Shown piece after piece: positions 7,933 to 51,200 of a stretch of DNA of 64,000 nt; the first letter of the stretch is position 1, and the number at the start of each line of letters is the position of its first letter. The notes beneath the pieces were generated by a model that was not told where the DNA came from, did not search any database, and was given only the letters and a program-made list of their open reading frames with translations. Source of the stretch: a virus; IMG/VR virus record IMGVR_UViG_3300044611_002466, positions 124,231-188,230 of that record; one strand, written 5' to 3'. The position numbers and the translations under genes were made by a program.

Positions 7933-8392
7933 GGCGTTTCAGGATGCCTTTCGACACCCGTACAAGGTGGAGCTCCTCTTGTACAAGCGCGGGGAGCCCA
8001 CGTTCACCGTGGAGCGTCTCGTGCCGGAGGCCTCCATTCCAAAGGAGGACGGGGACCCCACGGTAGCATTCCTCACCCCCTTCCAGATGATTCGACAGCA
8101 CGCAGAGCTCGAGATTCAGGAGGAGTCCAGTGTGTCTCTCCTGGAGAGGATCAGCCACGCGGTGCAGTCCCTCACAGTGCGCGGGTTCAAGTTCACGATG
8201 CTCGTCTGCGGCGACAAGATGCAGTTGCGGCGGGCGACCCCGCTGCTGCGCGTCGAGGATGTCTGGCAGGTGCAGCTCTACGAGGACCCGGAGGCGCCCG
8301 TCGACAAGGTCTTCGTCATCGGGTCCAAGAGTGGGGCGCAGCTCCAAGACATCGAGACCGCAGTCCTGTGTTCCTTCGAGGTGGTACCTTGA
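7859..8392 (+). CDS. hypothetical protein, 177 aa
   Basis: GGAGGG RBS; good codon bias. Confidence 0.75.
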   Translation: MDRQRMVLVTESRQIARATVPGLLEAFQDAFRHPYKVELLLYKRGEPTFTVERLVPEASIPKEDGDPTVAFLTPFQMIRQHAELEIQEESSVSLLERISHAVQSLTVRGFKFTMLVCGDKMQLRRATPLLRVEDVWQVQLYEDPEAPVDKVFVIGSKSGAQLQDIETAVLCSFEVVP

Positions 8393-9084
8393 TCTCCGAA
8401 GCGTGCACGTCCGACATCTTCTCAGTCGTGTCGGAGGACATCAACGCTGAGGAGCAGCACGGGAAGCTCGTCCTTCGCGTCGCGGACGAGAAGCTCTGGA
8501 TCCGCCTGCTGCAGGATCTCCTGCGAGCAGCGAACGTGGGGGAGCACTTCGGGCTCGAGGCGCACAAGGTCTTCCACCTGGACCAGTCCGCAGAGGTCTG
8601 CTACACGTGGATCTTGGTGCTGTGGGGAGACCCGGTCCCCCTCCTACCGACGCTGGCCCCCATCCTGGGACGCAAGGCGGTGTCCTCAGCGAAGCCGCCT
8701 CCCTTTGCCCTCGGGCGCCCCCCCAGCGCACCTCGACACACCCCCGCGGTAGCGAAGACGGCTGCTGCGGTAAGGACCGCCCCACAACAGCCGAGGAGCC
8801 CTCAAGGGTCCGACGATGAAGACGCACCTCTTCCGGAGGTACGCTTGGCGCTTCGCGAGGGAGTGCACAACATTCGGAAGGTGGAGCGCGTCAATAACGG
8901 TGTCACCAACATGCGGACGACAGTCCGGCTCGCGCATATCCGCGGAGAGCGTTTCGCGGGCAACTCAGATCCGCACGAGACCATTACCCTCAGCACGGGG
9001 TCGGGACGGTTCAAGGCCGTGGTTCAGCCCCTCCAGTCAGAAGACGGATTTCAAGCTCGCCGTACCGGCGGGGGGTCCCTATGA
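8389..9084 (+). CDS. hypothetical protein with Pro/Ala linker
   Basis: TTG start overlapping the upstream TGA, with GAGGTGG RBS. Confidence 0.7.
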   Translation: MISEACTSDIFSVVSEDINAEEQHGKLVLRVADEKLWIRLLQDLLRAANVGEHFGLEAHKVFHLDQSAEVCYTWILVLWGDPVPLLPTLAPILGRKAVSSAKPPPFALGRPPSAPRHTPAVAKTAAAVRTAPQQPRSPQGSDDEDAPLPEVRLALREGVHNIRKVERVNNGVTNMRTTVRLAHIRGERFAGNSDPHETITLSTGSGRFKAVVQPLQSEDGFQARRTGGGSL

Positions 9085-9875
9085 CAAGCGCCGCAGAACG
9101 CAGAAGCAAGATCAGCAGCCTGAGCTCGGGGCGGATCCCGAACTTCCTGCTATCGGCAGCCCCCACCCGTAATACCCCGTCCCTGCCAACGCCGGAGATC
9201 TCCAGCTGGGATCCCGATTTGACGGCTGCTGGGGCTGCTGCCATGGACCGGCTGATCGAGCTCGAGCCGTTGGAGAAGCTCGAGAAGGCGGGAAAGTACT
9301 CCAGGGCCAAGTGGAAGATCCAGATCTGGATCAAGTCCGGGCGGAGCATCTCCAAGCCGCTCGCGTTCTCGCTCTCCTTCTGGGAGTCCGGGAAGCGACT
9401 GCACGGAGGCGGCGACGAGTCGGCCTTCGTCTGCCGCCGGAACCACAACGCCCCGAAGCCGGCGAGGCCGCCATTTCTCGCCCTCGGGTTCTCGCCATTC
9501 GAGAACAAGGCGAGCCCCGACGGGTGCGGGGGCATCATTCTCGGGGAGGCCAGCGTGAACGGCTTCGCGGTCTGCCCGCACTGTGGGGTGCGATGGGACA
9601 CGGAACACATCGCAGACTCCATCTACTACAACCTCCCGGTGGAGGTTGCGGCCACCACGATCGCTACGTGGTTCAGGACGCTGGGTAGCGACTGCGACCT
9701 CTACATCAAGTACCGGGACGACGACATCCGCGTCAAGATGATGGCGCAGACGTACGGACTGGCCGAGGCGATTCGCCACAAGGGCTTGATGATCTACTCG
9801 CTGGCGCGGCTCGTGCAGGACATGAGTGCAGGGGCTACACTGGAGTCGCGGGTTAAGGCGGTCCTCCTGGCGTGA
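9081..9875 (+). CDS. Zn-ribbon-containing phage protein
   Basis: ATGA coupling; VCPHCG motif plus additional Cys residues. Confidence 0.75.
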   Translation: MTSAAERRSKISSLSSGRIPNFLLSAAPTRNTPSLPTPEISSWDPDLTAAGAAAMDRLIELEPLEKLEKAGKYSRAKWKIQIWIKSGRSISKPLAFSLSFWESGKRLHGGGDESAFVCRRNHNAPKPARPPFLALGFSPFENKASPDGCGGIILGEASVNGFAVCPHCGVRWDTEHIADSIYYNLPVEVAATTIATWFRTLGSDCDLYIKYRDDDIRVKMMAQTYGLAEAIRHKGLMIYSLARLVQDMSAGATLESRVKAVLLA

Positions 9876-9908
9876 GGCTTGCCGCGTACACGGAGTAGGC
9901 TCTTTCCC

Positions 9909-10583
9909 ATGATCGACCAGAACCAGGTACGCGTCTGCTTCACCGAGATCACCAAGAGCGCCGGCGTACCAAGCCCCTTGGCACGCGCAGGAGCGGGGGC
10001 CGCCATCGGCGCCCTCGCTGATGGCGGCCAGGCGACGCTGCACGCCCTCCGAGCGCGCTCAGACGTGGCCCAGCTTCGCGCAGCCGGCGGCATCTCCCCA
10101 GAGGAGGAGAAGGCCTTCGGCGCACGCCAGCGGTCTCACGTCGGGTCGCGTACCCTGCGCGGGGCGCTCGTCGGCGGTGTTAGCGGGGCCGTGCTCCCGC
10201 ACGCAGCCGCGGCGGTGAAGAAGTACTCTGGCGAGGCGGCGCAGCACCTGGGCAGGGAGTTCGGGCGTGGGGCCGCTGAGCACGTCGCACCGGCGGCCAG
10301 GGCCGCGATGCACGAGGCCGCCTTTGCGGCCCCTGCTGTGGGGCGCGCAGCTGCCGCGGGGGCGGCGGAGCACGTCGCGCCGGCGGTCAGAGCTGCGATG
10401 CACGAGGTCGCCTCTGCGGCTCCCGCGGTAGGCCGCGCTGCTGCTGCGGGGGCTGCCGAGTCTGCGGGGACCGCCGGGGAGCGCGCAGCCCGGGGAGCTG
10501 TTCGCGGTGCGAAGGACGCCCTAACTCCCTCCTGGGCCGGCAAGCTCAAGGGGCTCGCCACGCGCCTCATCAAGGAGGAGTAG
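9909..10583 (+). CDS. Ala/Gly-rich probable virion protein with glycine-zipper segments and a 30-aa repeat
   Basis: N-terminal CFTEITKSA; GAGAAIGALA and GALVGGVSGA segments. Confidence 0.75.
   Translation: MIDQNQVRVCFTEITKSAGVPSPLARAGAGAAIGALADGGQATLHALRARSDVAQLRAAGGISPEEEKAFGARQRSHVGSRTLRGALVGGVSGAVLPHAAAAVKKYSGEAAQHLGREFGRGAAEHVAPAARAAMHEAAFAAPAVGRAAAAGAAEHVAPAVRAAMHEVASAAPAVGRAAAAGAAESAGTAGERAARGAVRGAKDALTPSWAGKLKGLATRLIKEE
10269..10460 (+). repeat. 90-bp (30-aa) tandem coding repeat, about 2.1 copies
   Basis: GAGCACGTCGC at 10278 and 10368; GCCGAG in phase at 10455-10460; wobble positions diverged. Confidence 0.85.
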
Positions 10584-10587
10584 TCCC

Positions 10588-11919
10588 ATGCCTACGGACG
10601 CGCGAGGGGTGTTGACGGTCATGGGTCCTCCCGGGGAGTGGTCGGGGGCAGTCGCGTCGAGCGTCTCCCCCGAGCAGCGGCAGGACCTCTTGCGTGCCTG
10701 GCGTGCGATGTCCGCCGAGGAGCGGAACGAGATCGTCTCGAAGTGGCGCAAGCACTTCGAGACGCCGGACGACAAGACGGCGGCCGTCGAGTACCGAGGG
10801 CACACGTTCCCTGGCTACAACCAACCCGTCGAGTCCGATCAGAGGGACAAGAAGATGATGGTCCTGGCGAAGAAGGGGGACGAGGTCCGCCTTCTTCACT
10901 TCGGACAGAAGGGCTACAAGCACAACTACAGTCCAGACGCGAAGAAGGACTACCTCACCCGCTCGGCTGGCATCCGCAACGGGAGTGGTGAGCTGACCAA
11001 AGACGATCCCTTCAGCCCGAACTACTGGGCACGACGCGTGCTCTGGCCCGCTGGAAGGACGGGGAACGGCGAGAGCGGACCGACCAAGACGGCCGCGCTT
11101 ATGGGGTCGAAGGAGCATCGACAGGCGACACACCGCGTCGACGCGCACTTCCGCAGCAGCGATCCCGAGAAGTGGAGCACCCTCATGGACAGTGTGAAGC
11201 GCAAGTCCTTCGTGGCCGCCGTGAAGCAGGACACCCGCGCGGATCCCAAGTTCGAGCGCCACGTCGATCAGATGAACCGGCTCCTCACGGGCACCAAGGT
11301 CGACCAAGTCAGCGTCGGCGACGGCGTGAAGTACGACATCATGCGTCTGCGTGGCGGCGGGTACGGGTGTACCTGCCCAGACTGGCGCTACAAGAAGTCC
11401 GTCGCCTCCGAAGGAGCTCAGGACTGCAAGCACATCGTCGCCTGGAAGGGGATGCGCTCGTTCAAGAAGACCGCCTCGGTCCTCTCCACGCTGGCCGCTC
11501 ACCCGAAGAGCCTCTTCACTGCGGGCACGGCCGCTGGCGTGGGCGCCCTGGCCCTGGGCCTGCGCCACAACGCCAAGAGCACCCAGTTCACGCCAGCACA
11601 GAAGCAGATGCGAAGCACCGCCATGCACGAGGTCGCCGGTCTCGGGATGCTGGCCAGTCCCTACGTCGTCGGCTTGGCTGAGGCTGGGGCGGAGGCCCTG
11701 GGGTCGCGCTCGGGGCGTGTGGGCATGGCAGCGCGCGCCGCCCACAGCGTACTCCAGCCCCTCTCCCACGTGATGCACGGCGAGGGTCACGCCGCCCCCG
11801 TCCTTCACCGCGCGAACGAGCTCCTCGGGCTGGGCGTTCTGATGCGACCCGCGCTGCAAGAGATGCACCACCTGGGCGCACGCGCAAAGAAGCACGCCAG
11901 CCTGCTCGCGGGGATGTGA
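10588..11919 (+). CDS. multidomain probable head protein: DUF5754-like domain, SWIM Zn finger and hydrophobic C-terminus, separated by KTA[A/S]
   Basis: KKMMVL...HFGQKGYKHNY...YLTRSAG...FSPNYWARRVLW; YGCTCPDW...CKH. Confidence 0.75.
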   Translation: MPTDARGVLTVMGPPGEWSGAVASSVSPEQRQDLLRAWRAMSAEERNEIVSKWRKHFETPDDKTAAVEYRGHTFPGYNQPVESDQRDKKMMVLAKKGDEVRLLHFGQKGYKHNYSPDAKKDYLTRSAGIRNGSGELTKDDPFSPNYWARRVLWPAGRTGNGESGPTKTAALMGSKEHRQATHRVDAHFRSSDPEKWSTLMDSVKRKSFVAAVKQDTRADPKFERHVDQMNRLLTGTKVDQVSVGDGVKYDIMRLRGGGYGCTCPDWRYKKSVASEGAQDCKHIVAWKGMRSFKKTASVLSTLAAHPKSLFTAGTAAGVGALALGLRHNAKSTQFTPAQKQMRSTAMHEVAGLGMLASPYVVGLAEAGAEALGSRSGRVGMAARAAHSVLQPLSHVMHGEGHAAPVLHRANELLGLGVLMRPALQEMHHLGARAKKHASLLAGM

Positions 11920-11958
11920 GTACTTTCCAGTTGCGTCGGCAGGGGGATGTGAGTACAA
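11911..11958 (+). repeat. direct repeat GGGATGTGAGTAC, 2 copies 33 bp apart; the second is preceded by TTGCGT at 17-nt spacing to TACAAC
   Basis: 11911-11923 and 11944-11956. Confidence 0.75.
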
Positions 11959-12104
11959 CAGGCAGGGCTAAGAAGAACCGCCAACTCGCTTTCGTCGACC
12001 ATCGACTACGCCCGAGCTGGGTGCCTACTCCCGACGCTGGCCTGCAGGTCTGAACACCGGCAGTTTCAACACGTACCCCTTATCACCCTTTTCCTGGGGT
12101 TTGT

Positions 12105-12365
12105 ATGCCAACTCTCGGCGACTCTATAAGCCAAGTGCGCGACATGGAGGACCGAGCTGCTGTGCTGCGAACGGCGGTCTCACACCTCCGTACGAAGTAC
12201 GTCTCTCGTGACTCGACCCCCGCGTTGGCGCAGATGCGCACGCAGGCCGGCTTCCCGGTCAACGAGTCCGTGATCGTGAACACCGCGCTCGAGCTCGAGC
12301 GGGAGGCCAAGGAGCTCGAGGACGCGGTCAAGGCCGCCAAGGCCACGGAGCTCGGAGATGTCTGA
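12105..12365 (+). CDS. hypothetical helical protein, 86 aa
   Basis: Good codon bias; overlaps the next gene. Confidence 0.75.
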   Translation: MPTLGDSISQVRDMEDRAAVLRTAVSHLRTKYVSRDSTPALAQMRTQAGFPVNESVIVNTALELEREAKELEDAVKAAKATELGDV

Positions 12366-12885
12366 GAAGAACGGCACGAGGAAGGAGCGCGCGGATAGCA
12401 GGCGCCGGAAGATCCTGGAGTCCCTCACGAACGACGCGATGACGGAGAGCTGGGCCACCGCGACCAATCCGGTGAAGCGTCGAATCGGTCGGCTCGAGGT
12501 CGCGTGGCGGGACGGCATTCAGTGGTTGGCGGAGGACATCCGCAAGATGTTCCTCAACTTCACCACCATCGCCGACGCCTACGACATCGCCGATGTGAAC
12601 CTCGCCGCGATCAAGAGCCTCTGCATCGACAAGGGGATCTTCACGGACGAGGACTTCGAGGTACGCAGGGCGGTGATCATGAAGTTCGTCGACGAGGACC
12701 GCCAGCGGCGCCAAGCGGAGCTGGACGAGCTCACCGCAGCCGCCGCGGCCCGGACGGAGGAGGCCGAGGCGGCGGAGACCAGCCTGCCCGTCCGCGGGCT
12801 CGATCGCGAGGCGGTCACCATCCGCGATGCAGTGCTGGCCTCAAAGGACGAGTCCCACATCCCGAAGAGCGCCACCCTCTTCTGA
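12358..12885 (+). CDS. hypothetical coiled-coil protein, 175 aa
   Basis: GGAG RBS; terminator follows. Confidence 0.8.
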   Translation: MSEKNGTRKERADSRRRKILESLTNDAMTESWATATNPVKRRIGRLEVAWRDGIQWLAEDIRKMFLNFTTIADAYDIADVNLAAIKSLCIDKGIFTDEDFEVRRAVIMKFVDEDRQRRQAELDELTAAAAARTEEAEAAETSLPVRGLDREAVTIRDAVLASKDESHIPKSATLF

Positions 12886-12922
12886 GGGCTAAAGGGGCGG
12901 CCGACCGGGTGGGTCGGCCGCC
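12886..12922. terminator. terminator between convergent blocks: 11-bp stem with CTTTAGCCC tail on the minus strand
   Basis: GGCGGCCGACC (12896-12906) and GGTCGGCCGCC (12912-12922). Confidence 0.8.
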
Positions 12923-12926
12923 TTGC

Positions 12927-13805
12927 TCACGTATCCTCGAAGATGGCGGGACCGTCGATGAGGTCCTCATCGGCAGGAAGCGTCTCGAGCTCCGCGGAGA
13001 GGGCATCCGCGTCCACCACGACCTTCTGAAGGAACCCCACGAACTCGATGTCGAGCCCCTGCTCCTTGATGAAGCGACAGCAGAGCTGCTTCATCGCGGT
13101 CTCGTCCCAGCGCTCATCCAGAAGATCAGAGAGGAGGACCTCCGGGTCTTCGACCTCGTTGTTGAGCGTCCGGATCGCCCGGACTGAGCCGTCCTCCGCG
13201 TGGGTCCAGTGCACGGAGTCCCTGGTGACGACGGCGCTCCAGCCCCCGAAGCCGTCCGGACGCATCCTCGAGCAGGTCATCGCTGCGTTCACCTGGATGT
13301 AGTCCAGGTCCGGCAGCTGTGTGAGGAGCCACTGCAAGATCGACATGACGTCATCGTCGAAGCCGTCATCCCAGGAGATGTAGAGCTTGACGCCGGCGTC
13401 CTCCGTCGCGTCAACGATGATGGTGGCGCTCATAGCAGCGACCTCGCGCTCATCGTTCAGGACCCACTCGAGGTAGAGCACCGCGAGCGAGCCGCTGTAG
13501 GGGCCCACAAGCGAGCCATTGTCGTCGAGGATGTTCCCGTGCTCGTCGACGCTGTTACCGCTGGCGGAGAGGTATTCCGCACGCAGCCGCTCGTCGTCGA
13601 AGGTCCTGACGTCCTCGATGATGCCGTACTTGAGCAGGCCTGCGAGGGCAGCCTCCCGCGCGTCGTCATCGATCTCTTCCAGGTAGGAGTCCACCGCGAC
13701 CCGCCCCGCGCCGTTGCTGAGCCTGCTGAGGAGCTCGCACACGGACACAGGGACGTTCTCGAGGGGGCCGTTGGCGATTACGGCCTGCGTGGTGTAGTGT
13801 GACAT
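12927..13805 (-). CDS. acidic hypothetical protein, 292 aa
   Basis: Long ORF with strong codon bias. Confidence 0.8.
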   Translation of the reverse strand: MSHYTTQAVIANGPLENVPVSVCELLSRLSNGAGRVAVDSYLEEIDDDAREAALAGLLKYGIIEDVRTFDDERLRAEYLSASGNSVDEHGNILDDNGSLVGPYSGSLAVLYLEWVLNDEREVAAMSATIIVDATEDAGVKLYISWDDGFDDDVMSILQWLLTQLPDLDYIQVNAAMTCSRMRPDGFGGWSAVVTRDSVHWTHAEDGSVRAIRTLNNEVEDPEVLLSDLLDERWDETAMKQLCCRFIKEQGLDIEFVGFLQKVVVDADALSAELETLPADEDLIDGPAIFEDT

Positions 13806-31015: not shown

Positions 31016-32440
31016 ATGGGCATCAAGGAGTCCGCTCTACTCGCCGCCGCTGCGCGGACATCCAGCGCGCCGGCGGGGGCCTCCAGGGGCCCGGGAGGGT
31101 ACCGCTCGGTGGACAACGAGTGGGAGAAGATGCGCGGCACGTTGGCGCGCGCCTTGGTGTCAGACCCGGACTTGGTGATGTACTTCGCCTATCTGGTGTC
31201 CAACCGGGCGTGTACTCTGGCTCAGAAGGCCGCCGCCCAGCTGTGCGACATGGCGGTCTCCGTGGAGGGTTGGAAGTACCCGCAGGCCGCCGCCGCACCC
31301 CCAACGCAGCTGCAGAAGACGCTGGCCACCGTGACGTCCCGGAACGTGCTCAGCGCAGCGGACGCCGCCAGGCTCTCGGACGAGGTGACCTCCTACGTCA
31401 CGACGGAACTGCTGCCGAAGATCACCAAGGGGGGAAGGATGCAGCCGCGTGGTGTCGAGGCCTACGCCAACTACCGCGCGACGCGAGACGAGCTCGTCGG
31501 TACGTGGAAGAGGCTGCGGCAGGCGCTCGCCGACGCGTCGGGTACCCGCTTCTGCACCGAGGTGCCGCTGCGGAATGTGGCCCTCGGGGTGCCGCTCGCG
31601 GCACTGAACGCCACGAGCGGCCTGCTCGACCAAGGGAAGCTGACCGACTTCACGATACAGCTCGCCGCGGCCGGCGCGGCGGTGGCGGCGATGGGCAGGC
31701 GCGTGAGCCTCAAGGTGCGGCTTCGTACAGGACCAGAGGAGTTCCCCGGGGGCGGAGCGACCGCCAGCGCGGTGACCGAGGGCGGAGTCGTCGTGCGGAT
31801 CCAGACATCCCCCGCGCCGACACTGCTGGGCATCAAACCCGGGGACGCAGTAGTCTCCGCAGACGGCAAGACAGCCACCGTGTCGACGGTGGGCGAGGCC
31901 GAGTTCTCGCTCTCGAGCTCCACCCTCACGTCCATCGAAGGAGGCGTGTCTGTGCTCTCCGCCGCCTACGTGCAGTGGGAGGCGTTCTCGACAGCGCTGA
32001 ACGTCCCCTACGGGGAGATGCCGGCGGAGGCCCAGCTCCTCTCGGAGGTGCGGCGGAAGGAGAGTGCCAGCCCGGCGAGGATCCGCGGCTTGATGGAGTT
32101 CCTCTGCCGCACCGCAGCGATCCTGGACACCGTGTCCACGGAGGCGACGTCGGCGCTTGCCCGCGTCGCGGGGGACCTGTACGTGTACCCCGCGAAGTCG
32201 GTGGCGCTCTTGCTGCGCGAGTTCGCGCCGACCTTCGACTCCAAGACGCGTGCCACGGGAGACCGGCTGCTTTCCGAGTTGGAGAGCGGCGGGTTCGACT
32301 ACGCGGTCGAGCTCCTCTACCGGGGGGAGGTGGACTTGGTGATGCTCCTCGATGCCTCTTCCGTCTCTCGTGCGGGACGCGTGGACACCGCGGCCGCAGC
32401 GCTGAGCACCTACGCCGGAGGCGCCCGTGGGCTGGGATGA
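31016..32440 (+). CDS. virion structural protein, 474 aa
   Basis: Position within the tail operon; strong codon bias. Confidence 0.65.
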   Translation: MGIKESALLAAAARTSSAPAGASRGPGGYRSVDNEWEKMRGTLARALVSDPDLVMYFAYLVSNRACTLAQKAAAQLCDMAVSVEGWKYPQAAAAPPTQLQKTLATVTSRNVLSAADAARLSDEVTSYVTTELLPKITKGGRMQPRGVEAYANYRATRDELVGTWKRLRQALADASGTRFCTEVPLRNVALGVPLAALNATSGLLDQGKLTDFTIQLAAAGAAVAAMGRRVSLKVRLRTGPEEFPGGGATASAVTEGGVVVRIQTSPAPTLLGIKPGDAVVSADGKTATVSTVGEAEFSLSSSTLTSIEGGVSVLSAAYVQWEAFSTALNVPYGEMPAEAQLLSEVRRKESASPARIRGLMEFLCRTAAILDTVSTEATSALARVAGDLYVYPAKSVALLLREFAPTFDSKTRATGDRLLSELESGGFDYAVELLYRGEVDLVMLLDASSVSRAGRVDTAAAALSTYAGGARGLG

Positions 32441-32756
32441 GGCCCGCGCTCAAACCGCCAACGCGCTTGTCTCCATGCACGCGCGTCGGGTCGCGACGCA
32501 CGCCACGAACACGACCTTCGAGCTCGCACTCCTGGAGGGAATCGTGGCCCTGGACTCCGCACAGCCCGACGCGTTCGCCCTTGGAGCCGGGAGCTCCGTG
32601 CAGCACACGGATGACGGGAACGTACGCCCTGGACAGCTGCAGCAGCTGGAGGCGATGCGCGCGACGTTCTTCGGAGACGGCGCATCCGGTAGGAAGGGAC
32701 TCCTCGACATGATGCGAGAGATGCCAGATCCCTCCGAGCCCTCGGAGCAGCCGTGA
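32427..32756 (+). CDS. hypothetical protein, 109 aa
   Basis: GTG with GGAGG 5 nt upstream; stop overlaps the next GTG. Confidence 0.7.
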   Translation: MGWDEARAQTANALVSMHARRVATHATNTTFELALLEGIVALDSAQPDAFALGAGSSVQHTDDGNVRPGQLQQLEAMRATFFGDGASGRKGLLDMMREMPDPSEPSEQP

Positions 32757-33400
32757 GCGCCGCCGACTTCCAGGTACTCTCCTTCAAGGACCTCGCCCCC
32801 GTTACAAGCGTGGGTTTCTACTCGCAGAAGCCCCTCACTCTCGATGTGCGCGGGACCTCCTTCGTGGGCGTGGCCGCCGTGAACGTGAACGGGACGCCGG
32901 CGGCAGAGTACATCGTGCTCTCCCCCACGCGCATTCTTGTGCAGGTGCCGGAGATTGAGCTGCGCTCCCAGCTCCGATCTGTGCGGGTCATCCTGGCACG
33001 AACCGGCATGGGGGACACAGCGCTCGTCTCCTTCGACGCCATCGTTCCGGGGGCCCGTGCGACGGGCTTCACGAAGCTGATGCAGTCGTACCTCCGCGTC
33101 CTCTTCACGAACCCGGGAGAGGACCTTGCCTACCCCTGGCTGGGCGGAGGGCTACAGCGGTTGGTGGGGAGCGCTGCATCCCCGAGCGAGCTCCGCTCCA
33201 TGACGTCCACCGGAGTGAGCACCGCGGCTCAGCACCTGATCCGCCTTCAGGTCAGGAATCCTGTACTCACAGACGCGGAGAAGTTACGGTCTGCCACGCT
33301 GCTGCAGGCTGAGCACAACGCCTCGACCGCTTCCGTCAGCGTGCGCGTCGCTCTGACCGCCGTAGACGGCACCACCGGCAACCCCCTCGTGAGCGTGTAA
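32753..33400 (+). CDS. baseplate wedge protein, gp25/GPW-like, with N-terminal IPT/TIG-like domain
   Basis: KLMQSYLRVLFTNPG...GGGL...EKLRSATLL...VSVRVALTAVDG; directly upstream of the gpJ-like gene. Confidence 0.7.
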   Translation: MSAADFQVLSFKDLAPVTSVGFYSQKPLTLDVRGTSFVGVAAVNVNGTPAAEYIVLSPTRILVQVPEIELRSQLRSVRVILARTGMGDTALVSFDAIVPGARATGFTKLMQSYLRVLFTNPGEDLAYPWLGGGLQRLVGSAASPSELRSMTSTGVSTAAQHLIRLQVRNPVLTDAEKLRSATLLQAEHNASTASVSVRVALTAVDGTTGNPLVSV

Positions 33401-36400
33401 TGGCGAACGTCAACTCCCAGGCAGAGGCCATCCGGGACTTCCTCGTAGGACGCCTCGAGGTCTTCGATGCGAGTCTGGACACCTCCGAGGGCTCGGCGCT
33501 CTGGTCGCAAGTGGTCGCCCCCCTGTTCGAGCTCCTGGGCACGGACCCGTTCGACACCGACATCCGCACCTTCTTGAAGGACCGGGTCACGCAGGCGTTC
33601 CCCCTCGTCTCGGCACAGGACGGGGACGCGCTTGTCGACCTGCTCATCACGCCGCTCGAGGTGCTGCTCGAGCCGCTCAAGCGGGAGATTCAGATCATCC
33701 GCAAGGGCCAGTCGGTCCGGTCTTCGGAGCTGCGCCTGGAGGATGCACGCGACTTGGCGGGCAACTTCTTCGTCGACTGGCGTAGCGGAACGCGAGCCAG
33801 CGGGTCCGTGCGCATCTACTACGCGGCGCCGACGCATCTGACCATCCTGCCTACCGCCGAGTTCTCGACCGCGGGCGGGCTGCTGTTCTACCCCACACGC
33901 GCCCTGACGATGCGCCCGGAGTCGATGCTCCTCAACAAGTCGGGGGTGGAGTACTACGCCGACGTTCCGCTCACCGCGGGAACCCCGGCGCTCTCGCACA
34001 ACATCGCGAAGGGCGCGATCACCAGCGTCCGGGGGGTGACCGGGTTCACCCGCCTCACCAACCTGCGCGCCTTCGAGGGAGGTGCGGATCCGGAGACCGC
34101 CGCCGAGCTGCTGGCGCGGTCCGAGACCAGCCTGACCGAGCGCACCCTCAACGTGCGTCGAGGCATCGTGGCCCGTCTCGCGAAGGACTTCGCTTCGATC
34201 GTGGATACCGAGGTCGTCGGGTACGGCGACCCGGAGATGTCGCGGGACATCATCACGGGCAGCGGCGAGGGTTCCGTCGTGGCGAGCGGCGTCTGCTTCA
34301 TCGTCGGCCAGTTCGTGCTGATGTTCAGCACGTTCGAGAACCGAGGCAGGGAGGGGTCCTCGCAGATCTCGGAAGGGGACGAGATCGAGCTCAACTTCTG
34401 GAGTTTCCTGTACCAGACGGAGCTCGGGAGCGCGAACGAGAAGTTCAGGATCAACAACATCCTTTTCGACTCCCGCAACAGCATCTCGGAGCTGCCGTCG
34501 GTTCTGCTGTTCCGGATGGACGGGGTGCCTTCAGTGGTGGCCCCCATCGCGGGCACCCTCCCGGGAGTGCTGCCCGGAGTCTTCGCAGTGGTGCGGTCCA
34601 CCGGCAAGCTCGAGATCTCCGGCATCCCCGGCGGTATCCTCGACCCGGATACCCTGCGCGGGACCATCGAGATCAACGACAATGAGGTGCACATCGGAGG
34701 TCACTACGACGTGTGGCTTCGCGCTGCGACCGCCACCACCGACACGGCAACGCATGAGGCCGTGCGTTCCGAGACCGCCATCCTCGAGGGCAATGATCTG
34801 GTGTTTTCGGGAGGTAGCACCTCGTATCGACACATCGCGCACAGGCCGTACACCGTCGACAGCACGGCGTCGTTCCAGCTTGGACAGACCTTGTTCTGCG
34901 CGAGCAGCAAGGCGTCTGCGGTGATCGCCGAGGTCAGCCGGGTCGGCTCCGTCAACACGTACTACCTCTGGGAGATGAACGGGCTGGAGTTCGCCACCGG
35001 CGACTCCGTCACGGACGGGACCACCGCAGGGACGCTGCTGAGCGCGTCTTCAGTCCAGTGGGCGGACTACGGGGTCAAGCGCGGCATGGTGCTTGCCCTG
35101 CCAGGAGGCAACGAGGAGGGCTCCTACCGCATCCTCAAGGTGGACGGGCCCTTCCTCTACTTGGACATCAACCTCACGACCACCGGGCGTGGGCAGCTCT
35201 TCCGAGTGCTCTCGGAGGTGTCGGTCAACATCTTCGCTCCGAGGACCATCCTCATCCCGTTTGGAGCCGCCGACGGAGGGGACCTCCGGACTGTCATCGG
35301 CTCCAAGACCGCGCGCACCGCCATCAACCTGCAGGATTACGGGGTTCTCATCGGAGACACTCTCGAGATCCTCACGGGCGATGATGTGGGGTCCTACACC
35401 ATCTCGGCGTGGGACACGACGTACGGCGGGCAGGGGGCTGTGCTCAGCTCCACCATGACGGCGACGAACTCATCGGTGCACTACCAGGTGTACCGGATGC
35501 AACAGCCGGTACAACGACCGCTGCTGCGGGTAATGCCTGATGGAGTCGTGCTTCTGGATCGGGACGGACAGGACAGCGGCTACAAGATCCCGAATGCGAC
35601 CCCCGTAGACGTGCGCCCCGTGCATGCGTTCTCGGGAGCGAAGCCCATCTCCGAGGGCCTCAACGGCTTCGTGTTGATGGATCCCGGCAGCGGGTGGGCC
35701 CCCAGCGCGGACTACACCGTCGACATCGACACGTACGACTGGGCTGGCTGGACGGGCGGGGACTTCGAGTCGTTCTACGCGGGCGGCAGGTTCCGCCGCG
35801 CCGTCACAGACGGGGCGCTCAGCAGCACGGGCGGCTACGTCGCGGTCATCTCCGTACACGGCAGCTCCGGGCAGATGTACCTGGACTCCAACCTGCCGGA
35901 GGCAGCCAAGAACTTCCTCGGCGACATGCGAGAGTGGTTCCTGCGAGTCATCGCCGCCTTCGGTTTCGGCGGGGACGCAGAGGAGCTGGTGACGGCCCTC
36001 AGCCCGCTCAAGTTCGGACCGAACACGGACACCGCCCTCCCCCTCCTCATGCAGTTCGAGATCGTCCTCCCGTTCGAGATCTTCGACGGGTGCAACAACG
36101 TGTACGTCGCCCTCCCGGAGTTCGACTGGGAGAACGAGTTCGCGGTCTCGGACACCTTCGGAGAAGCCCTCGGACGCCTCAGCGACGGAGCGCTGGTCGG
36201 ACGCGACCCCGCGTTGCTGCAGGCGTCCCCTGGGGACGTGCTCACGGTGACCAGCGGGCTGAACGCGGGGGCGTACGTCATCGAGAGCGTGCAGACCTAC
36301 GCGCTGGTCAACGCGCGAGCGGTGGTCGATGGCGGCGGGGCGATCGATCTCAGCAGCGCCTACAAGGTCGGCTTGGTGGTGATCCGGGACGAGTTCCCGG

Positions 36401-45500: not shown

Positions 45501-47396
45501 GACGACGTCGTCTCGGCAATGACGGCATTGTCCCGCGGTATTCAGGTGGTCGACTATCTGACGGACCCGTTGTGGTGGAAGTCGAGCAACTCGACGGGCG
45601 CCGACGAGCTGCGCAAGTTCCACACCTGGCAGGTGCTGATCGACGCCAGCCAAGTCGACTCGCGGGACATCCCGCTCATCTCGGACTTCTGCAAGGGAAT
45701 CCGCCCGATCTACACGATGCCCAAGGTGGTGCTGGCGCTCTACCTCTACGACACGGTGACCTGCGCCGAGCGCCTGACTTTGTCCGGGGACCTGATCTTC
45801 TACGACGACCCGATCCTGAGCCTGGAGTCGACTCACATGGTCGACTCCTACAACGGCAGCAGCTTGGCGCAGCGCGTCTTCGATCACGGGTCCTTCTCCA
45901 CGAGGACACTCTTCGAGGGCGTCGACCTGGTAACGGCCGCGGGGACCGGAACTGTGACATCCGAGCGCGGCGGGTTCATGGGGGTGCTCGACGCCGCCCC
46001 CCTGAGCCACGCCCCCGACGAGCCGGTGGCCTTGCTCCTCGGGGTCAACAGCGCGTTCGAGGAGGGCGTTTACTACCGCGGGACGCCCCTTGTGCGGGCC
46101 GGCGACGTCTTGTTCATCCGGGATGGGGTCAACCGAGGCCGCTACCGGGTTGTGGAAGTCGTCAGCGACACAGAGCTCTCCATCGAGGAGCTCGAGGACT
46201 ACCCGCCCACGACGCGGCCCACCGAGGAGATCGAGGCGCGGACCGGCCAAATCTTCCAGATTCAACGGGAAGACTCTCACATCCTTGTGGCGGACGGCGT
46301 TGGCAGCGTCATCAGTCAGGACGGTACCGGCGACGACGCTGTGAGCGTGATCGAGGACATGACGGCCGGTTTTCGCTGGAACGGCGTGGCTGTGGGAGAC
46401 CTGCTCATCGCCACCGAGTTTCTCGGCGCCGGCGTACCGGGGGTGTACGAGGTCCTCGAGGTCGGTACATGGCTTGACGGAGATCGCGTTGACCTGGACA
46501 CCCGACTCATCGTCAGGGGAGCTCTTCCGGTAGGGGACACCTTCGCCTACTACGTGATGCGGGACGGCCTGCGCACCAACCCGTTGATCGAGGTCGACAA
46601 CCTCGAGCTCAGCATCGGGGTCAGCTCGGTGTCGAGCATGGGCACGGACTTCGTCCTCACGCATCTGCGCCCAGGGGACCAGATCGAGTTCGTGGACGGA
46701 ACGTACGCGGGCCAGGCGTTCGACATCATCGAGGCGTCGACGGGCCTGCTCCACCTGCGCAACTTCGTCTCGGCGGTGAACGAGTCCGGGGTCTCTGCCC
46801 GTGTGGTCCGCCCGTCCGTCTTCGAGCGGGAGGACCCTCGTGACGAAGACTGGGAGCTCGAGAAGTTCTGTCTGGACGACAACGTGTCGATGGTGATCCT
46901 CGAGCCCCGCCTTGATGTCGTAGGCCCTCTTGCCGACCTTGAGCTCGTGCTCGACGTGTCGGACCCGCTGCCCGAGAACTGGATTGCGACGGTGTCGTCA
47001 GTCGTGGACCTCGAGACTGCGGGAGTCCAGGCGGGCGACAAGCTCTCCATCGACAACGCCCATGCCAACTCCGGCGTGTTCGAGGTGACGAACGTCGACG
47101 GCACGACTGCCACCATCAGAGGCCTGTGGCGCGAAGCGGAGGGGCCCGTTTCCGGCACCTTCTCGACGCTCAACCCCGTCTGGGACGTCTCGAACTTCCA
47201 GGCTGTGCTCACGACATGGCCCCTGACGACCATCACCGACCTCGGCGACGTCGTCGTCCCTGGTGACGTGCTCGAGCTGCCTGGGGTGGACGGAACGCCC
47301 TTCGTGATCGCCGCCGCCTCGGGCGATACGCTCACCCTCACCCGTGATACGGGAATCACGACCATGTGCGCAGGGCGCGTCACCCGGAGGACTTGA
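42558..47396 (+). CDS. large baseplate/tail structural protein, 1612 aa, with N-terminal PKD-like domain
   Basis: LNGRAS...LSYAWAI...FVPDITGEYTIRLVV; internal wedge-like segment (GPTVRNV...GLP). Confidence 0.7.
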   Translation: MPPARISALHGFTVEPARAKPVAVISPGASSKVVGAVIRLNGRASTSADGAELSYAWAITATPLGSTVTETSNVDEDGSVVTFVPDITGEYTIRLVVSTPYRSSDPVFATAEATAVLLPLTLRTTPNGKLLFQVVSSFWKMVEHSAVFSTIWSGYMQLTGNELLRAFQVDYGKSIDTIQELFQRRWISYEPALELDSSQCTVVYGRHQGGTRAFTASGVLAGVGVIIDEREVVLLDGIPTAAAIGSELVVYTSGGVPGNCGEYTINRLNSDRSGYIVSASTVFPQPLDDRIAELSSLVTIAGSTTVYDANLAQDFVALGVAAGDVLRLAAGADSGFYTITAVNVGNVRTFTVDRAPTKTSASRSGSIFNAVRISAGKVASAATSTVFLPADEADLTVLDARTLAGAGTLVSAYELVVEPRHILSGMVGEQLYLTTGGAAGRAYTITGINTAENGYRVGSSFGAASYPVDITYSLTSNASIADRVLILEDEAYEIVSASYDSGVDPEDGGRGAAWVVVLAEASAPAGREGMSWRIAATLSTKEHADLEELGLTAGDLLILEAVREDTQFAGEIPCYVFGVAGSKISFDIGKALPALGAYGNLSEQEILDLVNGLRIPRAYRDDSDELQVILAAEEALATVRSAAFSTTYSNIPLTDSTVLAVGPYELTCRVKKLIRNCRIPVDKTLLSAPSLFEYIAESTTGVNTAGEVVLVTEEGTVTTLARAPLELVENRDYTISAEGSTSGTNLATTAGSNILTIPGGDLLDRDLRVGDYVDITSGLDQGRFYVSAVLDAERVRASTQDGAAPATTASALRYTLVRRVQGNFLRFVDGMFTPESPAPDRFWAQLSLFDNNPTIEDNFGALVGVTKEQLDMYGSSQVSYRGAVRALMYAWSSGPTVRNVTIGTHVLMGLPVTEVRGTIINIDVNYDTTRSRGRVLVEDLTVEGQPSGLVRSYFFAASEEAGLPTFQGLATNPATGVQFAVDDVVSAMTALSRGIQVVDYLTDPLWWKSSNSTGADELRKFHTWQVLIDASQVDSRDIPLISDFCKGIRPIYTMPKVVLALYLYDTVTCAERLTLSGDLIFYDDPILSLESTHMVDSYNGSSLAQRVFDHGSFSTRTLFEGVDLVTAAGTGTVTSERGGFMGVLDAAPLSHAPDEPVALLLGVNSAFEEGVYYRGTPLVRAGDVLFIRDGVNRGRYRVVEVVSDTELSIEELEDYPPTTRPTEEIEARTGQIFQIQREDSHILVADGVGSVISQDGTGDDAVSVIEDMTAGFRWNGVAVGDLLIATEFLGAGVPGVYEVLEVGTWLDGDRVDLDTRLIVRGALPVGDTFAYYVMRDGLRTNPLIEVDNLELSIGVSSVSSMGTDFVLTHLRPGDQIEFVDGTYAGQAFDIIEASTGLLHLRNFVSAVNESGVSARVVRPSVFEREDPRDEDWELEKFCLDDNVSMVILEPRLDVVGPLADLELVLDVSDPLPENWIATVSSVVDLETAGVQAGDKLSIDNAHANSGVFEVTNVDGTTATIRGLWREAEGPVSGTFSTLNPVWDVSNFQAVLTTWPLTTITDLGDVVVPGDVLELPGVDGTPFVIAAASGDTLTLTRDTGITTMCAGRVTRRT

Positions 47397-47587
47397 TGTT
47401 GAGGAAGTTCTTGAAGGAAAAGACACGCGTGCTGGACGCCCTGCGCATCTTCGGAGGGAAGCACGCCTCCGGGGAGCGAGGCATTCGCATGCCGGACGGG
47501 TCTCCCGTCCCGGTCGAACACATCATGAGCACCTTCGGGGTGGACCACGCGCGTGCGGCTGAGATCGCGCAAAGGCAGACACGATGA
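47396..47587 (+). CDS. small basic protein, 63 aa
   Basis: TGATG coupling upstream and ATGA coupling downstream. Confidence 0.65.
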   Translation: MLRKFLKEKTRVLDALRIFGGKHASGERGIRMPDGSPVPVEHIMSTFGVDHARAAEIAQRQTR

Positions 47588-48207
47588 GCCTGATCTCCAT
47601 TTTCCGCAGCCTCCTCCCGAGCCGGGCCTTCTCCGACATCTTCAAGCACAGCCCGCAGATCAAGGGGCACTTCCAGCTCGAGACGCGAGAGGGCGGGAAG
47701 CTCCGCCAGCGCTCCGAGGGCTTCAACATCTGGACGCTGACGGGGCGGGAGTACATCGCCGAGGTCGTCGCGCTGCGGGCGCGGAGCCCCAGGACGACCT
47801 TCCGCGATGACCGCATCGCCTTCATCGGCATGGGCTCGGGCGCGCAGTCCGAGGTCTCCAGCATCGAGTCGCTCGTCGACCCCGTGGTCTACAAGGCCGG
47901 GGAGTACTTGGCGGCGCTCGACGCGCCGGCCACCTTCCCGACGTCCGGGACCTCCACGACGAACACCACGGTGCGCTTCCTTCGCGAGTTCTCCCAGGGC
48001 GAGATCAGCCTCGGCTACAACGTCGTGCTCACCGAGGCGGGGCTCTTCACCGACGGAGACCCCAACAATGACTGGGCCTACGAGGTTCCTGTCACCGACT
48101 TCGCCGCCGCTGCCGGGCGCGCGCCCATGGCCTACAAGACCTATGAACCCGTCACCAAGACGGTAGACTTCACGCTGCGGGCGATCTGGGATCTCCGAAT
48201 CGTGTGA
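47584..48207 (+). CDS. tail fibre attachment/collar-type baseplate protein
   Basis: IGMGSG...VRF...LTEAGLF...YKTYEPVTKT..F.L...W. Confidence 0.65.
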   Translation: MSLISIFRSLLPSRAFSDIFKHSPQIKGHFQLETREGGKLRQRSEGFNIWTLTGREYIAEVVALRARSPRTTFRDDRIAFIGMGSGAQSEVSSIESLVDPVVYKAGEYLAALDAPATFPTSGTSTTNTTVRFLREFSQGEISLGYNVVLTEAGLFTDGDPNNDWAYEVPVTDFAAAAGRAPMAYKTYEPVTKTVDFTLRAIWDLRIV

Positions 48208-48223
48208 CGAGCGAGGGACTGCA

Positions 48224-51200
48224 ATGTCGACGAAGTACATCCGACGGCCGTTCGCCATGGGCAACACCGCCAACCCGGTGGTGGTGATTCCTGAGCTGCG
48301 TGGCTCACTGTTGAAGAACGCGTCCGGGGGGTTTTCGGGGCTGCCGTTACCCAGCGAGCTCGCGATCGAGACGGAGGAGCTCACTACCGCCGGCGGCGTG
48401 TCCGTCGTGTTCTCCACCGCGACCACCATGACTCAGATCCTCGCGGACATCGCCGGCACCGCCGGCCTGGTCGGGTTCGTGACGGCTGAAGAGGTCGAGG
48501 GCTGTCTTGTCCTGCGGAGCACCGGTTCCGGGGAGGGGGCCTACATCCGCATCATGCCGCCGGTCTCCGGATTCGACGACGCGTCGGCCGTCTTTGGGTT
48601 CGACGTGTACCCCCACCCGCTCGCGACGGTCAGCGCTGGCGACCTCCTGGATGCTCCCGCCCGTCCCCGCCAACAGGTCAACCCGGTGGGGACGAAGTTC
48701 ATCGCGACGGGGGAGGATCGCGTCGGCGCAGCGTACAACCGAGCCCTCCAGATGCTCGCGCTGAACGCCGACACGCTCTACACCTGGCTGCAGCGGTCCC
48801 TGGCCCGGCCTGTGGGCCTCACGATCAACGCCGCCGACCACGCGGCGTACTTGGTCACGAACATCGACGGGAGCATCGCTCAGCTCGACCTCTCGAACCT
48901 CGCGGCGTTCGACTCCGCGCTGGCAGATGTGCGGCTCTGTGTTGGTGGCTCCATCGGACTGTCGAGAAGCAGCAGCCTTCGCGAGATCTCGGAGCTGTAC
49001 GAAGTCACAGACGCCGAGCTGAAGGAGATCCCGGCCCAGGACAGGATCGTCCGCATCGGGGCGGTCACTCGAGGACAGCGGACGGCCGTGCTGCCCACGT
49101 TCGTGGACGAGACCAGCGCGCCGTCGACCCCCGTGCCGGACACCTACCGCACCAGTGTCGATGGCGGGAACGCGCTCGGCGTCGACCGAGCGAAGCACGC
49201 CGGCGTCGTCATCTCTGAGATCCGCCAGCGCACGACCATAGTCTGCACCGGTGCGACCTTCGTCACGAACGGAGTCACCGCCGGAGACGTGGCCACCATC
49301 ACGGGCGCCGCCGTGAGCAGCCCGTTCAACCACGATGGCACCTACCTCGTGGAGACGGTCGTGTCGGAGGAAGAGCTCGTGCTCCGACCCGCCGACACGT
49401 CGGAGACCTGCCGCGAGCTCAACCCCGCGGCCGGGGCCTTCGGCTCGGTGGTCATCACCTCTGGAGGGGAGTGGGAGCGGTCCCTCTGGGTCTCGTTCTA
49501 CCCGCCGATACCGAGAATGCCGGAGGGCGGGTCGTTCGTCCTCGTCGTTCCGGTAGAGACCGCGCTGGGCGCGCTGGCCCTGGCCGACATCGCCCGGGGC
49601 AGCACGCGCACGAACAACAACGTCGCCGGCTGGGCAGTCCTCAACCTGTGGCGCGGGTTGACGCTCTCCGGGCTCTACCAGGGGATGGCCGGGCAGAACG
49701 GCAGCGGCTTCTTCGGATCCATCACGCACCGCCCTCTCCGCCTGGACCGACAGGCCGCGGCGACCACCGCAGCGGGCACTACCGCGCGCAGCAGCACGGG
49801 CACGTCCACCCTGGACCTGCACACGCTCCGCCTGACGGCCGCCGCCACGGACCGCTTCGACACCGCCGACGTCGGCCTCACGATCCTCCTCACGACACCG
49901 GCGTCGGTCTTCTACGCGGACGAGCCCTGGACGGTCGTCCGCCTGATCGACAACTCCACCGTCGAGCTGGCCCCGCCCATCTTCAGGGCCGGGTACCAGG
50001 AGGCGGACGGCTCCACACTGCCGATCACGTCGTGGAGCCTGGTTGAAGGAGACGCCATCGATCTGCACGGGGCCATGCACGTCGTGTCCCCCGAGTACTT
50101 CGGGGAAGGGGACGACGCCCCGGCGGAGGGCGGCTACGTCTTCTCGCGCGAGCAGCGCGATGAGAGCTCCACCGCACCGCCCGTGCCGGGCTTCTTCTCC
50201 TTCCTGCACCTCGAGCGCATTCGCCTCACCGCGGACGGCACGAACATCACGGTCACGGCGGCGGGTCCGCTCTCTGCCGACGACGTGTTGCCGCTCAGCT
50301 TCGCGCCGGAGGACACCTCGAACATCTTCGGCGAGTCCTACGAGACCAAGACGGGTGCCTTGCAGTCGTCTCTGACCTTCGTCCGTCTCCTGAACGGGAA
50401 GAACGCAGGGCTGTACCGCGTGAAGGACGTGAAGGACGCGAGTGTCAGCGTCGACGCCATCACGGTCCAGCGCCTCGATGGGACGCCCGTGGTGTTCACC
50501 GCCGAGACCGAGGTCCAGGTCTGCTTCTACAACGCGAAGGTGGGCGCGTCCGTGCCCATTCATGGCGGACCAGGCGCGGCCGCGGTCTTCAGCAGCGCGA
50601 TGAGCCTGTTTGCCGACGCGAAGGAGCCAGACCACGCTGCCGACTACGGCCTCCGCCTGGGCTGGCGTGGCGTGGGTGGTGGGATCGTCGCCTACGTCAA
50701 TGACCCCGAGTTCAAGGCGTACGACAACGGGGACGCGGGGGACGGACCCCTCATCACAGCCGTCCTCCACGCGCCTGCGGACGGCATCGACATCAAGACG
50801 ACGGGGGCTGACTCGGGGGCGACAGCACGTCGCGCGTCGTTCGGATTCCGTGTCCGGGCCCATACCAACCGCCACAACTACGCACTCTCGAACCCGGGGG
50901 CGGCGGGGCCCCTCTTCCACTCGCAGGCGTCGTTCGGTGGGTACGTCGGGCAGACCGGCAGCGACCCCGCCCTCGTCCTCGTGAAGCAGGACAGGGACGA
51001 GGCCGGGGACGAGAGCACGCAGTACTCCAAGCTCACCCCGAGCGCCGCACTCCTTGTCGGCCGTGCGGGGCCCTCGAGCGCAGACGACCTCTCCGGCCCC
51101 TCTGGACGCGGTTCCGCGCTCGAGGCCGCCGGCTCCATCTACGCCTACCGACACACCTTCACGGCGGGGAGCAACCCCGCCTGGAGCGAGGGAGGCATCT

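Follow-up and report, generated by a model that had tools for sequence, protein, structure and literature searches.

A modular phage protein with Lys-x-Ala motifs at its domain joints: a candidate head-packaged, protease-cleaved cargo polyprotein

The protein P0001 is encoded in the final 64 kb (64,000 nucleotides, here called the window) of the 188,230-bp IMG/VR record IMGVR_UViG_3300044611_002466, which represents an uncultured phage with a G+C content of 65%. The open reading frame (ORF) covers window positions 10588-11919 on the plus strand, and its product of 443 amino acids (aa) consists of four segments joined by short Lys-x-Ala (K-x-A) motifs. An earlier, sequence-only reading of this stretch had noted three such motifs, KTAA, KTAA and KTAS at 10774, 11086 and 11467, all of which we recover in the ORF. 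Beyond these, there is a fourth K-x-A site, KHAS at residues 435-438, after which only five residues remain; at this position the homologs P0004, P0005 and P0007 continue into further modules. The features of the gene are as follows.

10588..11919, plus strand: whole ORF, encoding the 443-aa putative modular polyprotein P0001; stop codon at 11917-11919.
10588..10773, plus strand: module A, a small four-helix leader, aa 1-62, with a predicted local distance difference test score (pLDDT) of 84-96.
10774..10785, plus strand: junction 1, KTAA, aa 63-66.
10786..11085, plus strand: module B, a DUF5754-like beta-rich domain, aa 67-166.
11086..11097, plus strand: junction 2, KTAA, aa 167-170.
11098..11466, plus strand: module C, helical and beta, with a SWIM-type signature, aa 171-293; signature codons at 11368-11433.
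11467..11478, plus strand: junction 3, KTAS, aa 294-297.
11479..11889, plus strand: module D, hydrophobic, Ala/Leu/Gly/His-rich helical hairpins, aa 298-434.
11890..11916, plus strand: junction 4, KHAS (aa 435-438, from nucleotide 11890), and the five-residue tail.

The gene call in the source record begins at Met41, but residues 1-62 are conserved, with 80% identity in the homolog P0006, which indicates that the longer ORF starting from the first residue is the real one. A reverse-strand ORF of 462 aa (10570..11958, minus strand) spans the whole gene; since the conserved protein homologs match the plus-strand frame, we regard it as a shadow frame lying opposite a G+C-rich gene. At the DNA level, positions 9000-13000 of the window had no match among cultured phages, and a sequence search of P0001 against the chains in PDB found nothing. 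The PHROG and Pfam searches of 26 neighbouring or large ORFs in the window returned almost nothing, with matches to a ligase and a sigma factor only. No paralogs of any of the four P0001 modules were found elsewhere in the same genome.

The AlphaFold2 (AF2) model of the full protein, built with a 48-sequence alignment, consists of a four-helix leader (aa 1-62), a beta-rich part (aa 67-158), a part with both helices and strands (aa 175-300) and a set of long helices (aa 307-442). The four segments proposed from the sequence, namely a leader, a DUF5754-like segment, a SWIM-signature segment and a hydrophobic His/Gly-rich segment, thus correspond to separate predicted domains, and they also have separate sets of homologs. 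A search with Foldseek against PDB gave no match at E <= 0.001 for either the whole P0001 model or module C alone. In a wide search with VIA-align, module D retrieved nothing but generic helical bundles (best Z 8.5) and module C had matches with Z <= 4.2, from which no fold assignment follows for these two modules. There is no recognisable enzyme domain in P0001, and its Pfam matches to SWIM and DUF5754 are both sub-threshold.

The leader, module A, is predicted to form helices at residues 5-12, 20-24, 28-40 and 43-58. It is present in eight homologs, almost always at the N-terminus, and all of them contain a K-x-A-type site either where the module ends or slightly before. From this nearly invariant N-terminal location we infer that module A is a candidate capsid-targeting domain. 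The module is confined to close relatives, and a database search with module A alone retrieved only P0005 and P0006 besides P0001 itself, so that a targeting role for this domain cannot be generalised.

Module B matches PHROG 220, annotated as "minor head protein and DNA pilot", with an E-value of 7e-23, and also phrog_9979 and phrog_7595. Its match to Pfam DUF5754 (PF19058) has an E-value of 0.07 and 13.6 bits, which is below the gathering cut-off of 27.4. A relationship to DUF5754 is nevertheless probable, if indirect, as the homologs P0110-P0121 carry precomputed PF19058 hits. These proteins are 50-67% identical to P0001 by BLASTP, in alignments that cover 20-29% of the query.

Module C contains the signature C261-x-C263-x16-C280-x-H282, and all four of these residues are invariant in 150 homologs. 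Modelled alone, it has a pLDDT of 93.6 and a predicted template modelling score (pTM) of 0.82. The segment had been read from the sequence as a SWIM zinc finger. While the C-x-C-x(n)-C-x-H signature is indeed present, the score against Pfam SWIM (PF04434; E 0.02, 14.9 bits) falls below the gathering cut-off of 19.6, and we therefore refer to it as a SWIM-signature domain rather than file it as a member of the family. Our guess is that it binds nucleic acid or protein in a zinc-dependent manner. Module D is present in 28 homologs, and its long helices are modelled at a pLDDT of 55-82. The last 146 residues of P0001 (aa 298-443) include 11 histidines and 17 glycines, and two stretches within the module, aa 307-325 and aa 345-367, are Gly-zipper-like in composition and hydropathy, by which module D is possibly a membrane-active part.

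The tripeptide KTA occurs three times in P0001, as compared to 0.196 times expected (P about 8e-4, 100,000 shuffles of the protein), and three copies of KTA[AS] were attained in 0 of the 100,000 shuffles, although these P values are post hoc. Generalised to K-x-A-[A/S/G/E], the joint signal is found four times in the 47-kDa protein, versus 1.3 expected in a per-gene shuffle. The DNA flanking the four sites is unrelated except for the codons of the motif, which shows that the repeat is at the level of the peptide and is not a DNA repeat. Site 2 is placed within a segment of pLDDT<50 (aa 159-174), and around site 1 (residues 61-70) the pLDDT falls to about 72, flanked by blocks at 81-96 and 93.

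The sequence-only reading had suggested checking whether homologous modules are found shuffled, yet still flanked by K-x-A, in related phages, and this is the pattern observed in the metagenomic homologs, where the tag joins shuffled modules in more than 200 related phage proteins. The four modules recur in the close homologs P0003-P0010, where additional modules are inserted, exchanged or missing between them; the junctions displayed have the form K-x-[AG]. At junction 1, KTA is kept in P0003-P0008, while P0009 and P0010 have EKSA or EKQA. At junction 2, there is a K-x-[AG] just upstream of module C in all seven of the close homologs that contain this module, in the form of KTAA, KRAG, KHAA, KAAA, KLAG, or KTAD with a short spacer. 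Junction 3 is KTAS or KTAA in P0003-P0007 and KTAE in P0010.

The two central modules are widespread. Module B was identified in 113 other proteins with many different partners, including NUDIX, C92 peptidase, zinc ribbons, P-loop kinases and nucleotidyltransferase, of which NUDIX, C92 peptidase and PolyA_pol are called by precomputed Pfam hits. These three domains, which are carried by relatives, may be of the conflict-effector type; P0001 itself has only the sub-threshold SWIM and DUF5754 matches. Module C was identified in 231 representative proteins of 111-1495 aa, where it is located at any position or stands alone. The stand-alone module-C proteins contain a short N-terminal leader with the consensus L-x-K-x-A (alignment A2), and the tag is seen again in their tails. 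In the longest of the module-C proteins, the metagenomic P0125 (1495 aa), a possible DExH-type helicase-like region, a HExxH peptidase-like motif and modules C and D appear to be located between K-x-A joints. The helicase-like and HExxH assignments were made by eye; the architecture suggests that module C travels with large enzyme-like cargo.

A K-x-A motif is present no more than 8 aa upstream of module B in 104 of 111 proteins, as compared to 10.5% of random windows, and no more than 25 aa downstream in 82 of 85 (32% of random windows). For module C, the corresponding numbers are 76 of 106 within 16 aa upstream (16% of random windows) and 96 of 115 within 25 aa downstream (26%). These counts span 57-83 distinct sequence contexts for module B and 76-95 for module C. 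A BLAST breakpoint abuts 73% of all K-x-A sites, versus 10-58% of the sites in which Lys-x is followed by another residue. A coarse breakpoint test with K-x-[AG] gave a modest difference, 38-40% versus 23% within five residues, and the junction signal was clear only once the alanine was fixed and per-module anchoring was used. Consecutive K-x-A sites have a median spacing of 103 aa, which is about the size of a domain. The site logo shows Leu or Met at position -2, Glu at -1, Lys, a variable residue for which Thr is favoured, Ala, and then Ser, Glu, Ala or Gly. The distant homologs of module B in phage ICP1 and Aphanizomenon phage CL131 have no K-x-A beside the module, indicating that the tag is a lineage-specific joint and not a part of the domain.

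The same motif is concentrated in the head genes of the phage. The large terminase was located in the genome by PHROG 675 (E 2e-53). The major capsid protein, g045, is homologous to the protein annotated as capsid protein in Salmonella phage Arash (E 2e-19) and contains K-C-A-A at residue 28. A per-gene shuffle test of K-x-A-[ASEG] across the 197 predicted genes placed six proteins at the top for enrichment. These are listed here together with the candidate for the head maturation protease.

Genome 47359-49248 (L004:7359-9245), outside the window: g039, 629 aa, head maturation protease candidate (N-terminal part).
g037: 6 sites versus 0.67 expected; scaffold-like, flanks the protease gene g039.
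g040: 11 sites versus 2.4 expected; scaffold-like, flanks g039.
g041: 6 sites versus 1.8 expected; scaffold-like, flanks g039.
g042: 2 sites versus 0.14 expected; scaffold-like, flanks g039.
Genome 8007-9038, outside the window: g009, 8 sites versus 0.6 expected; away from the protease.
Genome about 33368-34882, outside the window: g022, 7 sites versus 1.0 expected; away from the protease.

In g009 and g022, the K-x-A sites are spaced every 20-220 residues. The protein g039 matches PHROG 18299, head maturation protease, with an E-value of 5e-5, and by its Atlas features it scores 0.96 to a cluster named "prohead core protein protease" and 0.90-0.91 to the S77/S80 clusters. It is homologous to gp19 of phage G (tblastn E 8e-11), the gene for which is located between those for the portal and the capsid protein. 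One paper (PMC12484599) gives a head maturation protease of phage G under two designations, ps601/gp19 and, in a different passage, "ps19/gp601". With about twice the length of gp19, g039 has a 32-residue insertion of its own and a KTAS motif 19 residues before the C-terminus; no match was found to its sequence among the PDB chains. Histidine and serine columns are conserved in a four-way alignment of the proteases, and these residues may have catalytic roles. The protease domain also contains a conserved C-x-x-C...C-x-H cluster, which is common to Arash, D69 and phage G. By these similarities, the genome appears to encode a head protease of the T4 gp21/phiKZ gp175 type, for which g039 is the candidate.

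Cultured relatives show the same distribution. The Arash proteins gp220, gp223 and gp225 contain 10, 8 and 7 sites, respectively, and protein 0271 of Vibrio phage D69 contains 10. K-E-A-G is found at residue 27 of the capsid protein in both Arash and D69. Furthermore, the proteases of this phage, Arash, D69 and phage G, aligned at about 30% identity, share G-L-x-K-x-A in one column just ahead of the protease domain. The presence of the motif in scaffold-like proteins, at the N-terminus of the capsid protein and in the protease, in this phage and its three cultured relatives, links it to head maturation. The published virion proteome of Arash (PMC10585845) offers no peptide-level data in its text and supplementary table, the "coverage" column of which looks unreliable, and it therefore says nothing either way about cleavage.

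Module B has also been recruited to head proteins in more distant phages. It is located at the C-terminal end of Gp125 in ICP1, which is annotated as a capsid protease (L009:5479-6315; tblastn E 9e-9), and at the N-terminal end of 4L372XY_107 in an Aeromonas phage, the gene for which occupies the protease slot (L015:4959-5882). The pairing of module B with a protease is thus recurrent. In the Aphanizomenon phage CL131, module B is fused to a portal-MuF protein, gp012 (tblastn E 6e-17). As these partners reside inside the prohead, their fusions lend indirect support to a prohead-internal location of module B.

Taken together, we consider it probable that P0001 is a cargo polyprotein that is packed into the capsid and cut at its K-x-A sites by the head protease. 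The precursor would be loaded into the procapsid, possibly by means of the helical leader, module A, and g039 would then cut it at every K-x-A. If the x-A|S sites of herpesvirus assemblin, a homolog, are taken as the analogy, the cut is probably made after the alanine. The products would be the leader, with a mass of about 7 kDa, and three proteins with masses of about 11, 14 and 15 kDa, which would stay in the head and leave it together with the DNA. The set of putative substrates, consisting of scaffold, the N-terminus of the capsid protein, the ends of the protease and cargo, is by analogy that known for T4 gp21 and for phiKZ gp175/SPN3US gp245. A broader proposal can be made, which is possible but which we would not yet call probable. 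According to this, a large clade of mostly uncultured big phages, including Arash, D69 and relatives of phage G, would have K-x-A, often in the form [L/M]-x-K-x-A-[S/A/G], as its cleavage code and as a universal "cut here" joint by which cargo modules are assembled, exchanged and co-packaged, while the L-x-K-x-A leader would be the capsid address of cargo with a single module.

Several observations weigh against the proposal that P0001 is cleaved head cargo. The cleavage, packaging and ejection of P0001 and its relatives are all deduced from sequence comparisons, and the position of the scissile bond from analogy. The idea of a head-packaged polyprotein, put forward in the sequence-only reading, gains from the modular anatomy, from shuffling that keeps the joints, and from a tag shared with head proteins, but it fits site 3 poorly. 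While the predicted structure places site 2 in a linker and site 1 at a dip between domains, site 3 is located at the end of a predicted helix (aa 281-302) and not in a free linker, where the full model has a pLDDT of 64 and the domain-only model one of about 91; a stretch of pLDDT<50 (aa 301-316) follows directly after it. At position -2, where the scaffold-like proteins commonly have Leu or Met, the four sites in P0001 have neither, and in g039 the site after the protease domain is degenerate. The P0001 gene is located about 80 kb from the head module, amid small genes of no known function. Some homologs contain a HExxH module, which might be the processing enzyme instead. Finally, K-x-A motifs also arise by chance in an Ala-rich proteome, as illustrated by g006, which contains KTAA without being enriched.

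Alternatively, P0001 might be an uncleaved multidomain, or polyvalent, protein in which K-x-A is a conserved linker or a docking peptide that binds, for example, the scaffold or the capsid interior. The placement of site 3 within a helix would agree with this, as would the virion RNA polymerase of phage N4, a polyvalent protein that passages of PMC5512222 describe as packaged unprocessed, and the finding in SPN3US that the cuts made by the prohead protease, self-cleavage excepted, remove N-terminal propeptides rather than separate several functional domains (PMC10052503). However, a pure linker is not expected at residue 27-28 of a capsid protein, nor ahead of the protease domain in one and the same alignment column of four lineages, nor 8-11 times in scaffold-like proteins, nor in the 10-20-residue N-terminal leaders of stand-alone cargo, and the distribution of K-x-A mirrors the substrates known for T4 gp21 and phiKZ gp175. 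We therefore regard an uncleaved protein as rather unlikely. A different enzyme might also cut the sites, either a zincin-like HExxH module acting in cis or in trans, or a host protease after injection. Such a module is placed between K-x-A joints in P0003 and P0125, and the autoproteolytic release of domains by metallopeptidase modules has been proposed in passages of Iyer et al. 2017 (PMC5512222). On the other hand, P0001 has no HExxH module and its own modules have no paralogs in the genome, in which no genome-wide search for HExxH was made. The motif is concentrated around the head-protease gene and flanks the protease in four lineages, which points to the head protease as its reader and leaves cleavage by another enzyme improbable.

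The alternative that requires no selection on the peptide is that the motifs are due to chance, or are the scars of recombination, with their codons serving as DNA microhomology for cassette exchange. K-x-A is common in an Ala-rich proteome at a G+C content of 65%, with 23 KTA in the whole genome as compared to 13.9 expected, and some of the sites are surely fortuitous. Chance is difficult to reconcile with the low shuffle P value for P0001 and with a junction association of 72-96%, versus 10-32% in the controls. In the case of a scar, only the lysine and the alanine are fixed, while the middle residue and the flanking DNA vary, which argues for selection on the peptide and not on the DNA. We find this explanation very hard to sustain in either form, and the cleavage of packaged cargo by the head protease is the reading that we retain.

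Other proteins encoded by the genome may belong to the same category. The ORF directly upstream of P0001 (window 9879-10583, plus strand) encodes an Ala-rich protein of 234 aa, and it contains a 90-bp tandem repeat at 10269-10460, with 2.1 copies and an 83% match, which encodes a repeated His/Ala-rich peptide. Its N-terminus includes ...FTEITKSAG..., a K-x-A-G leader similar to those of the stand-alone cargo proteins, and for this reason the product may be head cargo too. Two genes upstream, a candidate ORF of 238 aa (window 8368-9084, plus strand) contains KTAA in the context AVAKTAAAV; its frame was dropped by a simple gene caller. Outside the window, at genome positions 31092-33371 (L003:11092-13371), a protein of 759 aa contains a ferritin/Dps-like domain (Pfam Ferritin E 2.8e-7; PHROG "DNA binding protein"), with KQAE before the domain and KTAS after it, ten residues from the C-terminus, and with Gly-zipper hydrophobic stretches upstream. 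This arrangement resembles that of P0001, and the protein appears to be a second polyprotein of this type.

The processing of internal proteins by head proteases is known already, as are polyvalent proteins. The present case differs in its specificity for K-x-A, and in that this motif would be used universally to join mobile cargo cassettes; no paper describing a K-x-A motif was found in the literature on prohead processing. If K-x-A is the site of the head protease, sequence alone could suffice to predict which proteins these phages carry into the cell. This would cover hundreds of uncharacterised modules, including the very conserved DUF5754-like and SWIM-signature domains, and it would mean that phages build and trade their injected cargo as cleavable cassettes. 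The finding concerns a 188-kb phage that resembles Arash, together with modules B and C, two cargo modules of very wide distribution, and the reading links the processing of head proteins in T4 and phiKZ with the polyvalent proteins. The claim is directly testable because the cultured phages Arash, D69 and phage G share the motif in the capsid protein, the scaffold-like proteins and the protease. The targeting sequence of T4 has already been used to load foreign proteins into capsids, and a defined pair of address and cut site, as proposed here, could be used for the same purpose.

Compared to other systems, Gp125 of ICP1 and gp012 of CL131 contain the same module B in proteins inside the prohead. 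They differ from P0001 in that there is no K-x-A by the module, the partners are others, and the SWIM-signature and hydrophobic modules are absent. The maturation and release sites of herpesvirus assemblin are (V/L/I)-x-A|S. The prohead proteases of phages share their fold with assemblin (Cheng et al. 2004, cited in PMC10052503). By analogy, the K-x-A sites would similarly have Ala at P1 and Ser or Ala at P1', and in both cases a protease of the same fold would cut the scaffold and itself. Unlike in assemblin, P3 would be a lysine instead of an aliphatic residue, and there would often be a Leu or Met at P5.

The motif of the phiKZ gp175-type proteases ends in Glu, [S/A/G]-x-E. Like the system proposed here, phiKZ gp175 and SPN3US gp245 represent giant-phage proteases of the same superfamily with many head substrates, several copies of the motif per propeptide, and internal proteins that are ejected. 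A preference for Ser at P1' is reported, and in SPN3US all cuts but the self-cleavage yield N-terminal propeptides (PMC10052503). Here, in contrast, every segment between the sites is a conserved, mobile module that is predicted to fold independently. The polyvalent proteins, as described in passages of PMC5512222, resemble P0001 in having unrelated domains in one chain, extensive shuffling and an association with delivery by the virion, but the release proposed there is by a built-in metallopeptidase, and a shared junction peptide for the head protease is not described in the passages searched. P0001 likewise has at least two unrelated domains in a single polypeptide, and its domains are extensively shuffled.

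The cleavage consensus of the T4 head protease gp21 is L/I-x-E. The internal proteins IPI-III and Alt of T4 have a capsid targeting sequence and are served by this prohead protease (PMC3012670). In T4, otherwise diverse cargo proteins have in common no more than a brief address at the N-terminus, terminated by the three-residue motif of the head protease, and the capsid protein, the scaffold and the protease itself are processed at this motif too. Similarly, the stand-alone module-C proteins here have a short L-x-K-x-A leader, and the head proteins bear the tag as well. The leader of P0001 differs from the 10-residue peptide of T4 in being a folded helical domain of 62 residues, as predicted, and the present system is known from sequence alone. 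It further differs in that the motif is K-x-A, that several cargo modules are concatenated with a tag at each joint, and that the cassettes are shuffled between phages.

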